Under the pieces are notes generated by a model. The model worked only from the letters and a program-made list of their open reading frames with translations. It was not told the DNA's origin and did no database searches. The translations under genes and the position numbers were made by a program. Positions 26,449 through 40,046 of a stretch of DNA of 64,000 nucleotides are shown here, piece after piece; the stretch's first letter is position 1, and each line of letters opens with the position of its first letter. This DNA is from Eledone cirrhosa (lineage: Eukaryota), in the NCBI GenBank assembly GCA_964016885.1, contig OZ024744.1, positions 83,390,001 to 83,454,000 on the forward strand, written 5' to 3'.

Positions 26449-26524
26449 ATATATTTTATTATATATATATATTTCAAAGGTACTGTGCTGTTTTTTCAGT
26501 ACGTCCTCATCAGACAAAATATAT
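26449..26524 (-). ncRNA. type I hammerhead ribozyme (family H)
   Basis: AUAUAUUUUGU-CUGAUGA-GGAC GUACUG..CAGUAC CUUU-GAA-(AU)n-A-AUAAAAUAUAU; AUA triplet. Confidence 0.8.
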
Positions 26525-26634
26525 GATTTGATATATGACATACCGCTACGGTATTGATTATTCAATTCCCGTATTGGCAGTGATATACGGGAATTGAATA
26601 ATCAAGACTGTAGCGGTATGTTATATATCAAATC

Positions 26635-26710
26635 ATATATTTTGTCTGATGAGGATGTACTGAAAAAACAGCACAGTACCTTTGAAATATATATATATAA
26701 TAAAATATAT
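26635..26710 (+). ncRNA. type I hammerhead ribozyme (family H)
   Basis: CTGATGA 26646-26652, GAAA 26684-26687, helix I ATATATTTTGT/ATAAAATATAT, helix II GTACTG/CAGTAC, helix III (AT)n. Confidence 0.8.
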
Positions 26711-26874
26711 ATTTTGATTATGCGAATATTTTTCATTTGTTAATATTTTGAATAATATATATATATATATATATATATATATATATATATATATATATAT
26801 ATATATATATATATATATATATATTTATATATACACACACATATATTGAACCACCGTATATTTCATATATTGTC

Positions 26875-27155
26875 CCGGTTGTTTGAAATACGGAACAACC
26901 TGACAGGGAATTTAGCATGCAAGTGGCTCTGCATTCCCCAGACATGTACCCTCTTAACGTAGTTTTCAGGCAGATGTAACGTCAGATATGACTGGCACTT
27001 TGAAATACTGGTACATCGTTTACCAGCTAGCTGAGTGGATTGGACCAATGTGAAATAAAGTGACTTGCTCAAGGACACAATACTTCCCTCACGATTCAAA
27101 TTCACGACGTTACGATCATTGACTGATCACGTCAATCATTAAGCCCTGTGCATTC
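26875..27155 (-). mobile_element. SINE family 3-related copy
   Basis: GTGAAATAAAGTGACTTGCTCAAGGACACAA = reverse complement of the CORE-like segment; degenerate tRNA head. Confidence 0.65.
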
Positions 27156-30145
27156 ATGTAGACAATATATATATATATTATGTGTGTATAAACACGCACA
27201 TATGAAAATAAATTTAGATAGATGCCCATCAGCATCAGCGTATGTGCATGGTAGCTTCTGGAAATGACTTCTGTTTTCTGTGTTATATTTCAATATTCAG
27301 TGAAACACAGTGTTGTAAATAGCCTGACCTACTTTAAAATATTAAAGATTCATTGGCAACAAATATTCCAAACATATTTCTTCGAATGCTAAAAAAAAAA
27401 GAAAGAAATGAGAGCAAGAAAAAAAATAAAACGCAAGAAAGAGAGCTAGTAAGAAAAAAAAGAAACTAGCAACTTTTTGTTATCGTGTTTACTCTGTAAA
27501 CATTTTAGAGTGAGTCGTATTGGCTACTGAATCGATACTGTACATATCTTGAAATTATTTTACCAACCCTGTTTCGCAGAAAAGCGCTGATGTTGATGAT
27601 GATGTGGAAGGGGAGGAGAAATAGGACAGTAGTATTGGTATTGTGTTGGTGGCAATGGTAATGCATGGCTTAAATACAAGACTACCTATACCTTTTTCAT
27701 ATGTCAGGCTTGAGTAATAATTCATTTAATCATAAGCGTGTATTTATTTATTTATTTATGGTATCGACTCTGACGGATCTAAGTAAGAAAGAAACCCAGC
27801 CAAATTTTATCTGAAGGACAACATAGATTGTCTGAGAAACTACCATTTTAAATAAGACATAATATTTTATTTATTGACCATAAGGACTCATCTGTTTTAT
27901 TAATGGTTTCTCGTTGTCGTTGCCTTCTGGTGCCAGGATGGAAACAACAGTAGCATCAACTATGTTTCTCATCTCTAGAGTATGCTGTCGTTCTTGCCAA
28001 TACTTTTACTACCATTACACCGTACTGTTTGCCTCTGCTTTTCGTCAACTTTTGGGCAGAATACATCTCCAAGCCCGATTTTCACACCGAGATAACTTGT
28101 GGTGTTGTGTGACCATTACAATCTAGATGTATTCAGACCTCACTCATCTCTACACTCAATACATTTCTATATTGATCTGCAAAGGTGACACTAACCCAAA
28201 ACTCGATCTCTATGCCAATATAATCCTAGTGTTTTTAAGACTCTTAAAAAGTGATCAAGTATGTAGCACAACAGCTCTACTTGTTACCTACATTCGTTCC
28301 AGGAAACTCTTCTGTACGTATGGCCGCTATCGATTGAGCTCACATTCACACATCGCTCAATATCTCCTCAAATTAACTCTATCTTTCAATTCAAAGGGTA
28401 GTCGCCTTTCTCCAGTCTTGATGTATGCAACATTCACCTAGAATAAATTTGTTGAGTAAGCAAGCACTATCTTTAAACCATTCCAGTCCGCTTCTCTGTT
28501 TTCTTCAGCTGGCTCAAAACAAATTCTTTTATCTCACAACATTAACAAATATTGAAGTGTTAGTGTTAGTGTTGTTGGCGTTGCTATACACGTTGTTTCT
28601 TTTACTATATAAATCAACGGTGCTACTATGCTTTTGGAGTCAGATGTGTGTGCTATATGTGTGTGTGTGTGTATGTGTGTGTGCTATGTGTATGTGTGTG
28701 TTCTATGTGTATGCGTGTGTGTGTGGGAGGTGAATGTGAGTGTGTGTGTGTTCCTTTTTTCGTTTGAAAATAATTTAGGATAGGCATTTTTACGTTACTG
28801 TTAACCTCGCTGTGGATAGCCCCCTTTCATAACAATTATAAGGCGGCCATTTTGCAATGCGTGTAAATATTACAAATAATGATAGTGGGGGTTGTTGCGA
28901 TGGCTGTGGTGGTGTAGTGTAACGGGAAGGCTGGTTATTGTTACGAAGCCCCCATGTCATCCATTATGGAACAGTTCTAATGCACACGGGTAGTCAGCTG
29001 TACGAAAAAGGGCGTGAAACGTATCATCTTTAGATTATCCCATGTCTCCGTCTTATTGGCGACCATATTGCAACGTAACAACATTTGTATAGAACGGTGA
29101 ATGCCTCTAGTGATAATCGGTGTAGCTAGTGCTAGGTTGGTCCTATTAATTGTGGTGGCAGTCGTAGTGATGTTGATGGTAAATCAACAACGTTGAATAT
29201 ATATATATATATACATATATATATATATATATATATATATATATATATATATATATATATATATATATATATATATATATATATATATAGATGAGATTCT
29301 ACAGGACTAGAACTGTTTGGTTACCTCCGATTCAACCCGGAATAACGTACATATATATATATATATATATATATATATGTATATACATATATATATATAT
29401 ATATACATACATATATATATATATATATATTTATATTTATATATTTAGTAAAATCACAGATTAAAGTTTAAGCAAAGAATCGCTGCTTTCACCCATAAAT
29501 ACATACACACACACAAACACAAACACACACACACACACACACACACACACACACACACACACACACACACACACACACACACACACACACACACACACAC
29601 ACACACACACACACACATATATAAATATAAATATATATATATATATATATGTATGTATATATATATATATATATATATATACATATATATATATATATAT
29701 ATATGTACGTTATTCCGGGTTGATATATATATTAGACTTAGTTCGTTTTAATTGATTATTTGTCTAGTTAATTTCTACGGACTAAAAGGAATGACTAGAT
29801 AGATTTTATCTGACTGTACTTCGCGGAAAATAGTCTGTATCATTTGTCTATTATTTCTTCATAGTTAAATTTTAAACTTATAGCCTCGTTTAAATGATTA
29901 TTTATGTAGTTGATTTCTACGGACTAGGGTGAAGAAAGACTGGGTATATTTTATCTAATAATTTTTCAAACTTTCAATTCTCTCTCGCTCTCTCGCTCTC
30001 TCTCTCTCTCTCTCTCTCTCTCTCTCTCTCTATATATATATATATATATATATATATATATATATATATATATATATATATATATATATATATATATATA
30101 TATATATACATATATATATATACATATATATATACATATATATAT

Positions 30146-38600: not shown

Positions 38601-38930
38601 TTAATTCAAAATATTAACAAAAATAGACATTCGTGTAATCCAGTATATTTTATTATACATATTTCAGAGGTACTGAGCTATCTTCAACAGTACGTCCTCA
38701 TCAGATAAAATAAGATGATGCATGACATACCCTGACATAGTAGATGGTTAAGATTCAGTCATGGTAGTGTTTAAGATATGACAAAACTCAATATTTATAT
38801 ACCTTAAGATTGAGACATGAAAACATTTACATATAATACAGAGGGTGCGTTGAGTGCTACTGTTGAGTGCTTCCAATCTATTGTAAAACTCATTCTTTGA
38901 TTTATTCATTGAACCTTGTTTAACCTTTAA
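38601..38930. mobile_element. family H element with internal inversion
   Basis: 38601-38730 is homologous to 26401-26545 in the same orientation; 38860-38930 is the reverse homolog of 26310-26378; both ends in (TA)n. Confidence 0.75.
38646..38712 (-). ncRNA. type I hammerhead ribozyme (family H)
   Basis: UAUUUUAU-CUGAUGA-GGAC GUACUG..CAGUAC CUCU-GAA-AUAUGUAU-A-AUAAAAUA. Confidence 0.8.
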
Positions 38931-39258
38931 ATATATATATATATATATATATGCGTATATATATATATATATATATATATATATATATATATATATATAT
39001 ATATATATATATATATATATATATATATATATATATATATATGCGTATATATATATATATATATATATATATATATATATATATATATATATAGATACAT
39101 ATATATACATACAAATATATATATATAAGCAAAGAGATGTTTAATTTGTTGGTAATTCCACAAGTATATTTATAACAGATTCGAAGCACTCGACATGTTT
39201 TCTGGAGTATAATATCAATGATATTAATAAATGGAAACTATATTTATAAAACCATATT

Positions 39259-39319
39259 TATTCTATTATATATATTTCAAGAGTACCAAAACTTTGGTAC
39301 GCACTTATCAGATAAAATA
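39259..39319 (-). ncRNA. family H hammerhead with core mutation (CUGAUAA)
   Basis: Helix II GUACCAAA/UUUGGUAC, GAAA, (AU)n helix III; the G8A change probably inactivates it. Confidence 0.6.
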
Positions 39320-39981
39320 CAAAATTTGTTTTATAAATAGTGACATACCCAGGAATCAGACCCTAACAATTTAGGTTCCGATTGGATAGTTAGAGGATAG
39401 AGGAAAAAAGAGAAAAGAGGAAGAAAGGAAAAAGAACAAATATTTCAAATTATTTTGATGAATATGCAAATGAACTTTCCTCTATCCTCTCACTATTTAT
39501 GTTTGCATGCTTATTTTTAGTAATATGAACCACTACACGTGTTTCTCGATATATTTTAATGTATCTATAAATATATGTACAAGCCTCTGCCATTAGACAT
39601 AAATGTATTTAAATATTGACTTCACAATTATACATTTATATTCGGATTACCATCAGTCGGTTTCTTATGTTTACACAGCCATATACGCACACGTGCAATC
39701 GTCTGTACATGATTCTTCAATTCTATCTCCACGGAATAACATACTATCATTCTCTTATTAAATCGGTATTTCTATTTTCCTTTTCTAAGTACTTTGCTTT
39801 TTACATTTTCTTTCACATCAATATTTTATATACAATCCTTTCTATCCAATTAAATTCATATATATATATATATATATATATATGTATATATATATATATA
39901 TATATATATATATATATAGCGAATTTTAAACCGTCAAGGTTGTTTTCCATGGTAATTGTCACTATTTATAAATCAAATTTG

Positions 39982-40046
39982 TATTTTATCTGATGAAAGC
40001 GCACCAAGGTTGGCTTGGTTGCCCTTGAAATATATATAATAAAATA
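39982..40046 (+). ncRNA. type I hammerhead ribozyme (family H)
   Basis: TATTTTAT-CTGATGA-AAG C GC ACCAAG gttgg CTTGGT T GC C CTT-GAA-ATATATAT-A-ATAAAATA. Confidence 0.8.

Follow-up and report, generated by a model that had tools for sequence, protein, structure and literature searches.

Hammerhead Motifs in the Window

The window analyzed here is a stretch of 64,000 nucleotides from the genome of Eledone cirrhosa (contig OZ024744.1), for which an earlier note reported five copies of a hammerhead ribozyme (26449−, 26635+, 38646−, 39259−, and 39982+). All five positions were borne out: the family pattern gives five matches in the window and none in each of 20 dinucleotide shuffles, and a generic hammerhead scan returns six matches in the window versus two over 20 dinucleotide shuffles together. 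Helix I, GAAA, the AUA triplet, the arms of helix II, and the cut after 26699 in the plus-strand copy 26635+ are as described there, and the pyrimidine mismatch following the third base pair of helix II, ascribed to most copies, occupies pair 4 in all five. The core, described as common to all copies, is retained in four of them (CUGANGA ... GAAA ... UH), the exception being 39259−, which reads CUGAUAA with G8 changed to A. The five motifs belong to only four insertions, as 26449− and 26635+ are arms of a single inverted one. These insertions represent four different subfamilies (B, C, D, and E), all short, truncated, and decayed, and are arranged as follows.

26308..26755, both arms: inverted insertion with subfamily B ends and (TA)n on the flanks; long end ~26308, short end ~26755
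26452..26521, minus strand: hammerhead A, subfamily B; core start 26513, helix III of 12 nt, predicted cut after 26460
26638..26707, plus strand: hammerhead B; core start 26646, helix III of 12 nt, predicted cut after 26699
26308..26404, minus strand: ~95-nt "tail" from the short end to the long end, lying in tandem copies within the 5′ UTR that precedes the ORF
26535..26543, minus strand: motif GGUAUGUCA, conserved upstream of the hammerhead; may act as an anti-helix-II strand, a splice donor, or a promoter element
38602..38935, minus strand: subfamily C insertion; hammerhead 38646–38712, helix III AUAUGUAU, predicted cut after 38654
39128..39400, minus strand: subfamily D insertion; hammerhead 39259–39319, long end ~39128
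39920..40178, plus strand: subfamily E insertion; hammerhead 39982–40046, predicted cut after 40038, long end ~40178

The inverted insertion has its centre at ~26577–26586, and its entire stretch folds into a single long hairpin on either strand. Hammerhead A runs on for ~150 nt as far as the long end and hammerhead B for 55 nt to the short end; the latter has helix II position 4 changed from C to U, and its arm carries a mutated version of the GGUAUGUCA motif at ~26615–26623. The subfamily C insertion comprises a short end at ~38602 and an inverted piece of the tail at ~38845–38935. The subfamily D hammerhead is likely dead, judging from the G8-to-A change together with a broken pair 2 of helix II, while CUGAUGA is read in most of its listed relatives. 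Of the 278 Rfam matches in the window, the 150 listed include no hammerhead family; those listed were microRNA-like and fell on simple repeats.

Conservation and Proposed Dimeric Form of the Hammerhead

The claim that helix II changes its sequence and yet stays paired was upheld at the scale of the genome, where the copies fall into 14–20 diverged subfamilies. Counting by script on 14 subfamily representatives, we found 108 of 112 cells paired, with double-sided changes in seven of the eight pairs and, at pair 4, a C•C mismatch that hardly varies. This degree of pairing was reached by none of 10,000 shuffles, the subfamilies being related and the shuffles ignoring kinship. A second collection, for which helix II pairing was not a criterion, gave the same outcome. 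Helix I is paired in 110 of 112 cells and is almost invariant, so that its pairing is uninformative with respect to covariation; extension of this helix was considered as well and reached p below 0.05 in only 6 of the 14 representatives. Folding of single copies yields weak z-scores (−0.8 to −2.3). The earlier suggestion that the structure was under selection in the source elements is thus supported by the co-variation of helix II in both collections. Pair 10.1–11.1 is mainly A-U or G-U and the cleavage triplet is AUA, which are weaker than G-C and GUC, respectively.

Helix III was initially regarded as an AU repeat of variable length (8–12 nt). Its length proved essentially fixed, with exact genomic matches numbering 5,712 for 8 nt, 36 for 10 nt, and 4 for 12 nt, two of the last four being the subfamily B arms of this window. 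Its palindromic nature held, the purity of the repeat did not: in several subfamilies helix III is AUAUAUAU, but it is often impure AU, as in 38646−, whose AUAUGUAU is the normal form of its subfamily (13 of 14). According to computed energies (+4.7 kcal/mol for the monomer versus −3.2 for the dimer), the monomeric helix of two base pairs and a 4-nt loop is not stable and the helix forms only between two copies. In an active element, hammerheads are likely to cut RNA as dimers via the fixed 8-nt palindrome, as a model already published for Penelope hammerheads has it (PMC4209133, PMC6765202). Since the AU dimer helix is predicted to be weak, cleavage activity may be low or protein-dependent.

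Element Carrying the Hammerheads

The motifs are very probably type I hammerhead sequences in terminal repeats of Penelope-like elements of the Hydra clade, with cleavage likely in dimers and reverse transcription likely starting at two internal sites past the cut; the assignment to this clade is based on motifs and on comparison of published Hydra sequences by eye. The earlier note rightly placed the element in (TA)n sites and left it unnamed, and its identity is suggested here by the ORF of longer copies, encoding RT and GIY-YIG domains 1–2.4 kb upstream of the hammerhead. An ORF upstream of the hammerhead on the same strand is found in subfamilies B, B2, C, C2, and K, and B, C, and K additionally have a hammerhead upstream of an ORF; pieces of the ORF occur in 4 of 30 loci of subfamily D, and no ORF-bearing copy was linked to subfamily E. 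In tandem copies a hammerhead also lies ~185–215 nt ahead of the start codon of the next ORF, so the terminal repeat carries it on both sides of the coding region. The unit measures ~3.8 kb from hammerhead to hammerhead (locus L104), exceeding the “<3 kb” described for the Hydra clade.

The ORF is a single 750-aa frame with YRDD and YIG, RT preceding GIY-YIG. Its motifs (RWx, DKT, CxCx5C, CxxC, and CxH, with no cysteines between GIY and YIG) match those in section 11 of PMC8557442. DKT in place of DKG is present in loci L122 and L126, the second having RWR rather than RWK; the CxCx5C linker and CxxC are intact in L104, and CxH is found in L122, in which two cysteines are mutated; CxxC and CxH lie around E and N, and CCHH is lacking. 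In profile alignment to another, Pfam-confirmed Penelope element of the window, the RT half is matched with a probability of 85% (E 6.6e-6) and the nuclease part with 33% (E 4.7e-4). The 750-aa ORF was not recognized in the Pfam search, in which 11 aligned homologues gave GIY-YIG only once (E 0.051), and had no match in a search of solved structures. Other leads were discarded. The Penelope ORF at 43066–44326, at first taken as a possible host, belongs to a different family, which has a long 3′ UTR and lacks the family H motif; a hammerhead in a tandem array of that family is found on the far side of a (TA)n run and was not attributed to the family; and a 935-aa open frame turned out to come from a different retroelement, nested there by insertion. 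More distant Hydra families do exist, with 3′ UTRs mostly extending past the 1.5-kb flanks. Exact matches of the 3′ half number 81,592 genome-wide, a lower bound on element ends, versus 5 for the reversed control.

Conserved Motif Upstream of the Hammerhead

The GGUAUGUCA motif may be read in two ways, both tentative. One reading, which we hold to be rather unlikely, makes it either a 5′ splice donor (G|GUAUGU) whose intron would span the hammerhead together with the two start sites, or a promoter element belonging to the terminal repeat. The motif is conserved as sequence rather than as pairing; inspection by eye finds an AG ~10–25 nt ahead of the start codon in subfamilies B, C, and D, whereas K lacks both the motif and the corresponding AG; and both Penelope and Chlamys-3 are described as having 5′ UTR introns within their terminal repeats. 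On the other hand, further AGs are located in between, and the last two bases of the motif are conserved more than the donor consensus requires. No GT-AG joint was found in four sequencing runs, the contigs of which are DNA-like and have no bearing on expression or splicing.

The second possibility, which would supplement the assignment to Hydra-clade elements, is an off-switch: the upstream strand would pair with the 5′ arm of helix II, putting G opposite C of the C•C mismatch, and the RNA would remain uncut until refolded by protein or by sequence further downstream. We consider it unlikely, and no less doubtful is its corollary that, with a strand 14–35 nt upstream pairing through the mismatch, a transcript would either serve whole as a template for reverse transcription or, once refolded, be cut as a message. 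If true, this would account for the fact that the ribozyme through which insertions read is always intact. Among upstream partners of the 5′ arm, this motif ranks first in 13 of 14 representatives (the remaining one has no upstream flank); across 20 subfamily majorities, positions 2–9 are paired in 136 of 160 cells and G stands opposite C4 in 19; register 0 pairs 89 of 100 versus 1–58 in slid registers, even if the register was derived from the very sequences scored. The distant K lineage has both strands changed at positions 2 and 6, similar complements are seen in some unrelated hammerhead families, and the anole hammerhead requires protein for cleavage. In the main lineage, however, the motif stays fixed while its partner varies and breaks pairs (position 2 in 8, position 6 in 5, and position 5 in 3 of 20), and the related subfamilies amount to approximately two independent lineages. 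Shuffling gave p ≤ 0.05 in no more than 7 of 14 representatives, and in just 4 of the 14 is the alternative fold the dominant form of the predicted ensemble.

Insertion Ends and Target Choice

Copies end ~50–55 or ~130–150 nt beyond the cut, in (TA)n, and exhibit 5′ truncation, inverted arrangement, and an optional tail at one end (~90 nt versus the 30–40 described). A (TA)5 run is present within 268 nt of the cut in 180 of 202 sampled copies; it is met at 40–79 nt in 109, at 120–169 nt in 58, elsewhere in 13, and never at 0–19 nt, with 22 copies lacking it, these counts being biased toward the short end, as many loci were fetched with queries containing it. Thirty of 38 inverted pairs combine a long and a short end, none is short-short or long-long, and eight are unclassified. 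Anchoring of junctions misplaced 11 subfamily B ends and missed short ends of K, none of which were counted. The two-end pattern and the tail agree with in vitro start sites of the anole element (PMC11167929).

As the mechanism for the Hydra-clade element we propose that cleavage would set the 5′ end of ORF-bearing RNA, and reverse transcription likely begins at the two internal sites downstream of the cut. The template would be either tandem RNA left uncut or a circle formed by re-ligation, because the cDNA extends across the cut site. The (TA)n target is likely chosen by protein, at most helped by AU pairing at the two start sites, which in subfamilies B, C, and D have 4–5 nt of AU in common with (TA)n.

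The earlier note had speculated instead that cleavage leaves an (AU)n RNA end complementary to the (TA)n sites, linking ribozyme and target choice. Such an end would prime or guide insertion by annealing to (TA)n that has been nicked, in analogy to the telomere attachment described for endonuclease-less elements. This is very improbable and, as the main route, largely refuted. In its favor are the AUAUAUAU form of helix III in several subfamilies, the location of every copy at (TA)n-rich sites, and the copies which break off within helix III and pass into (TA)n. The latter are only 9 genome-wide versus 5,712 continuing past the cut, and a neighboring TA run a few bases further gives 6 ends (with a differently anchored pattern). 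Mapping of junctions relative to the cut, as the note had proposed, placed 0 of the 202 sampled ends within 19 nt of it. A sister family with AUGCGCAU (22,318 matches) shows the same two (TA)n ends, published Hydra families with non-AU helices III target (TA)n (File S1/S2, PMC8557442), and Naiads do so without a canonical hammerhead. Joining to the target at the repeat adjoining the cut, as in the telomere-type attachment of Athena and Coprina, was not found.

It is equally hard to credit that the motifs are non-autonomous tandem retrozymes or a SINE rather than a coding element: the majority of copies are short and non-coding and the terminal repeat has a read depth hundreds of times greater than the ORF, but nested 5′ truncations pass continuously into the ORF and copies occur singly or inverted rather than as short tandem units.

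What hammerheads do in Penelope elements that bear an endonuclease is described as unclear, and the Hydra clade is already known for both hammerheads and (TA)n insertion (PMC8557442). The basic finding of a Hydra element that targets (TA)n and bears a palindromic dimer hammerhead has been described before. Here, the 81,592 or more ends from a single clade, spread over 14–20 diverged subfamilies, suffice to exclude cut-site priming as the targeting route, the same set of copies shows that inverted pairs combine a short and a long end, and the conserved C•C with its upstream complement offers a cheap test of how cleavage is restrained.

Comparison With Known Systems

The literature search brought up nothing for these elements on AU repeats in helix III, on the C•C mismatch, or on a switch upstream of the hammerhead, although Lunse et al., the Terminon paper, and the supplementary alignments of PMC4209133 may already show such variants. 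Non-LTR retrozymes (PMC7229834; bioRxiv 10.64898/2026.07.22.740005) are alike in having a type I hammerhead, high copy number, and kinship to Penelope terminal repeats; they are, however, short non-coding tandem units, whereas copies here are truncated ends of a coding element.

The Hydra clade (Craig et al. 2021, PMC8557442), which includes Hydra-1_Obim of Octopus, shares with the present element RT with a C-terminal GIY-YIG, DKT, RWx, the CxCx5C linker, the lack of CCHH, CxxC and CxH, (TA)n targets, and a hammerhead near the 3′ end; Hydra-1_Obim also has, by eye, a similar short 5′ UTR motif ahead of the start codon. The element differs in its unit of ~3.8 kb, 3′ UTR of 1–2.4 kb, and tail of ~90 nt, and its hammerhead in the longer helix II, C•C at pair 4, and the 8-nt AU-rich palindrome, a form absent from the Hydra hammerheads listed in File S2 (PMC8557442).

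With minimal and small-helix-III hammerheads of metazoan Penelope-like elements (Cervera and De la Pena 2014, PMC4209133; Lunse et al. via review PMC6765202), the common features are type I topology, location in terminal repeats, a long helix II, a helix III that is palindromic, cleavage proposed to occur in dimers, copies in the thousands that are single or on opposite strands, and families rich in compensatory changes. Distinct here are the absence of an unpaired base between positions 9 and 10.1, A-U/G-U instead of G-C in most cases at 10.1–11.1, a nearly invariant helix I of 8 bp, and the conserved C•C.

Poseidon of Anolis (Frangieh et al. 2024, PMC11167929) likewise uses two internal start sites past the hammerhead, which produce a tail, and AT-rich targets, and its cleavage is not required for insertion. 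In the element described here, the hammerhead and both start sites, ~90 nt apart, precede the ORF, and the sites of subfamilies B, C, and D share 4–5 nt with (TA)n, whereas those of the anole element are reported to be non-homologous to the target.

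Hammerhead motifs of family H

All five family H motifs are present with helix I, the core, GAAA, the palindrome and the AUA triplet, and the family pattern has five matches in the window versus none in each of 20 block-wise dinucleotide shuffles. They are a real, well-conserved hammerhead variant of an already known clade of elements. The features of the window are as follows.

26449, minus strand: family H hammerhead, subfamily B
26635, plus strand: family H hammerhead, subfamily B
38646, minus strand: family H hammerhead, subfamily C
39259, minus strand: family H hammerhead, subfamily D
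39982, plus strand: family H hammerhead, subfamily E
24319-24380, plus strand: sixth hammerhead-like motif, helix III palindromic (9 nt; ACCACUGGU in relatives)
40720-40766, minus strand: seventh hammerhead-like motif, helix III ACUAGU, unrelated family
43066-44326, plus strand: 3′ region of a different Penelope-like element, frameshifted, with reverse transcriptase (RT), cysteine linker and GIY-YIG
46250-48021, 24955-26206 and 17672-18097: other non-LTR retrotransposon fragments (two regions match RT and zf-RVT; 24958-25677 has no match)

The description as five copies holds for the motifs, but those at 26449 and 26635 are two arms of one inverted insertion, which on both strands folds into one long hairpin; in a read-through transcript both hammerheads would therefore likely be masked. 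The copy at 39259 carries A for G8 and has the second pair of helix II broken, positions where most relatives differ from it, and in the copy at 38646 helix III is AUAUGUAU. The variable length ascribed to helix III in the earlier note is largely not borne out: exact matches across the genome number 5,712 at 8 nt, 36 at 10 nt and 4 at 12 nt, the last being a rare expansion with two of its four copies in the window. Both arms of the insertion at 26308-26755 have this 12-nt form, implying expansion before or during inversion, or conversion between the arms.

Covariation and the upstream motif

A first set of 139 copies, collected with some helix II pairing as a requirement, gave 26 clusters and, after dropping 12 judged to be truncated or deleted copies of others, 14 subfamily representatives. 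Among these, 108 of 112 cells show pairing for helix II pairs 1-3 and 5-9, and seven of the eight pairs have both-sided changes; none of 10,000 column shuffles, which ignore relatedness, reaches this score. In a second set, where helix II pairing was no requirement (233 copies, 20 subfamily majorities), pairs 1, 2 and 5 are paired in 20/20, pairs 3, 6 and 7 in 19/20 and pair 8 in 15/20, a one-base bulge lying behind four of the misses; position 4 is C•C in 18 majorities, the other two having C•U. Helix III changes yet stays palindromic (AUAUAUAU, AUAUGUAU, AUGCGCAU), while helix I is little informative on pairing because its sequence is nearly invariant. Covariation of helix II in both sets, together with the varying palindromes, makes structural selection in the source elements, as initially proposed, well supported. 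Helix I stays near-invariant in every subfamily while flank identity is 57-66%, a pattern suggestive of a tertiary contact or of contact with protein.

Upstream of helix I, one motif pairs best with the 5′ arm of helix II in 13 of 14 representatives. It places G opposite the C of the mismatch, pairs in 136 of 160 cells (20 majorities) and, in subfamily K, has two positions changed on both strands. A switch strand is possible, and in circles of plant retrozymes and viroids hammerheads are described as blocked by complementary strands (PMC7229834). However, shuffling gives p <= 0.05 in only 7/14 representatives, the alternative pairing dominates the ensemble in 4/14, and the motif is constant while several changes in the partner arm break pairs. 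A splice donor or promoter element accounts for the motif equally well. None of the papers listed by the literature search describes a C•C mismatch or a complement upstream in these elements, and paper supplements may hold such variants.

Computed energies of the 8-nt helix III are +4.7 kcal/mol for the hairpin and -3.2 for the duplex of two copies (-10.5 for AUGCGCAU as a two-copy duplex), which fits predicted cleavage as dimers. For hammerheads of Penelope elements, cleavage as dimers has been published as the model (PMC4209133, PMC6765202), and the idea is in this sense already known.

Host element

Upstream of subfamily B, nested 5′ truncations lead to a broken ORF that carries RT and nuclease motifs, and in a related copy an open frame of 750 aa precedes a subfamily C hammerhead by 2 kb. 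A same-strand ORF lies upstream of the hammerhead in subfamilies B, B2, C, C2 and K, and in B, C and K a hammerhead is also present upstream of an ORF start; subfamily D has ORF pieces in 4/30 loci, and for E, unlike all these, no ORF tie was found. Homologues are 30-40% identical and mostly without names. The 750-aa ORF is not recognised by Pfam, which assigns GIY-YIG to one of 11 aligned members (E 0.051), and comparison with solved structures gave no match. The ORF profile aligns with the RT half of the window's other Penelope element and weakly with its nuclease; the motifs of the 750-aa ORF and its relatives are RWx, DKT, CxCx5C, CxxC and CxH, with no cysteines in the GIY-YIG interval. 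In the genome of ~3 Gb the hammerhead 3′ half has 81,592 exact matches versus 5 for the reversed pattern, and a sample of 40 stretches placed at round coordinates (396 kb) contains 10 copies.

The family at 43066-44326 includes many 784-aa open frames of ~95% identity. Its copies terminate in (TA)n, some with a 35-nt tail and some lacking it, and the 1.5 kb past the ORF yielded no hammerhead. Another Hydra-type nuclease (locus L299) lies ~1 kb upstream of one relative of the 24319-24380 motif, and relatives of this motif have (TA)n ends at about +35 and +108. Locus L142 (G000:C3:149688469) is a short tandem repeat of the hammerhead region only and is retrozyme-like.

Insertion junctions

It had been proposed that cleavage leaves an (AU)n end guiding insertion into (TA)n. 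Helix III runs straight into (TA)n in 9 genomic copies and continues into helix I in 5,712; since a nearby internal TA run, the control with a differently anchored pattern, gives 6 such ends, the cut site is near background. In 202 copies, after exclusion of any retrieved through junction patterns, the first (TA)5 past the predicted cut lies at 40-79 nt in 109, at 120-169 nt in 58 and elsewhere in 13, with none within 268 nt in 22 and 0/202 at <=19 nt. The AUGCGCAU family (22,318 matches) has the same two ends. On these counts cut-site targeting as the main route is refuted. Helix III takes several palindromic forms, of which the AU repeat is one, and this repeat is no marker of the junction. 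Published Hydra families likewise have (TA)n targets despite non-AU helices (PMC8557442).

A weak form of the AU-pairing idea survives, in which pairing would move to both insertion ends: in read-through copies of B, C and D (L104, L127, L196) each of the two ends has 4-5 nt of alternating A/U in common with (TA)n. Such runs occupy 10-22% of positions in the same region, and the long end of subfamily K shares only 2 nt.

Proposed mechanism and comparison with known systems

Tandem copies are ordered as 3′ UTR, hammerhead, short end, tail, long end and start codon, the latter ~185-215 nt past the cut. Inverted pairs combine a long and a short end in 30/38, with two alike in none and eight unclassified. 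We suggest that the protein nicks (TA)n and begins cDNA at two sites, and that cDNA would pass through the intact ribozyme, in which case the template would be uncut or re-ligated RNA; cleavage would define where the RNA with the ORF begins at its 5′ end. Long-with-short pairing in all classifiable inverted pairs would fit two protein copies, each priming one of the target strands from a start site of its own.

The motif set of the Eledone ORF is that of the Hydra clade, for which PMC8557442 describes (TA)n targets, hammerheads and one Octopus member; the likeness is one of motifs. For the anole element, PMC11167929 describes reverse transcription beginning at a pair of internal sites, one on either side of the tail, cutting and extension of both target strands, and insertion persisting in hammerhead mutants; this two-site start matches the long and short ends of the Eledone inverted pairs.
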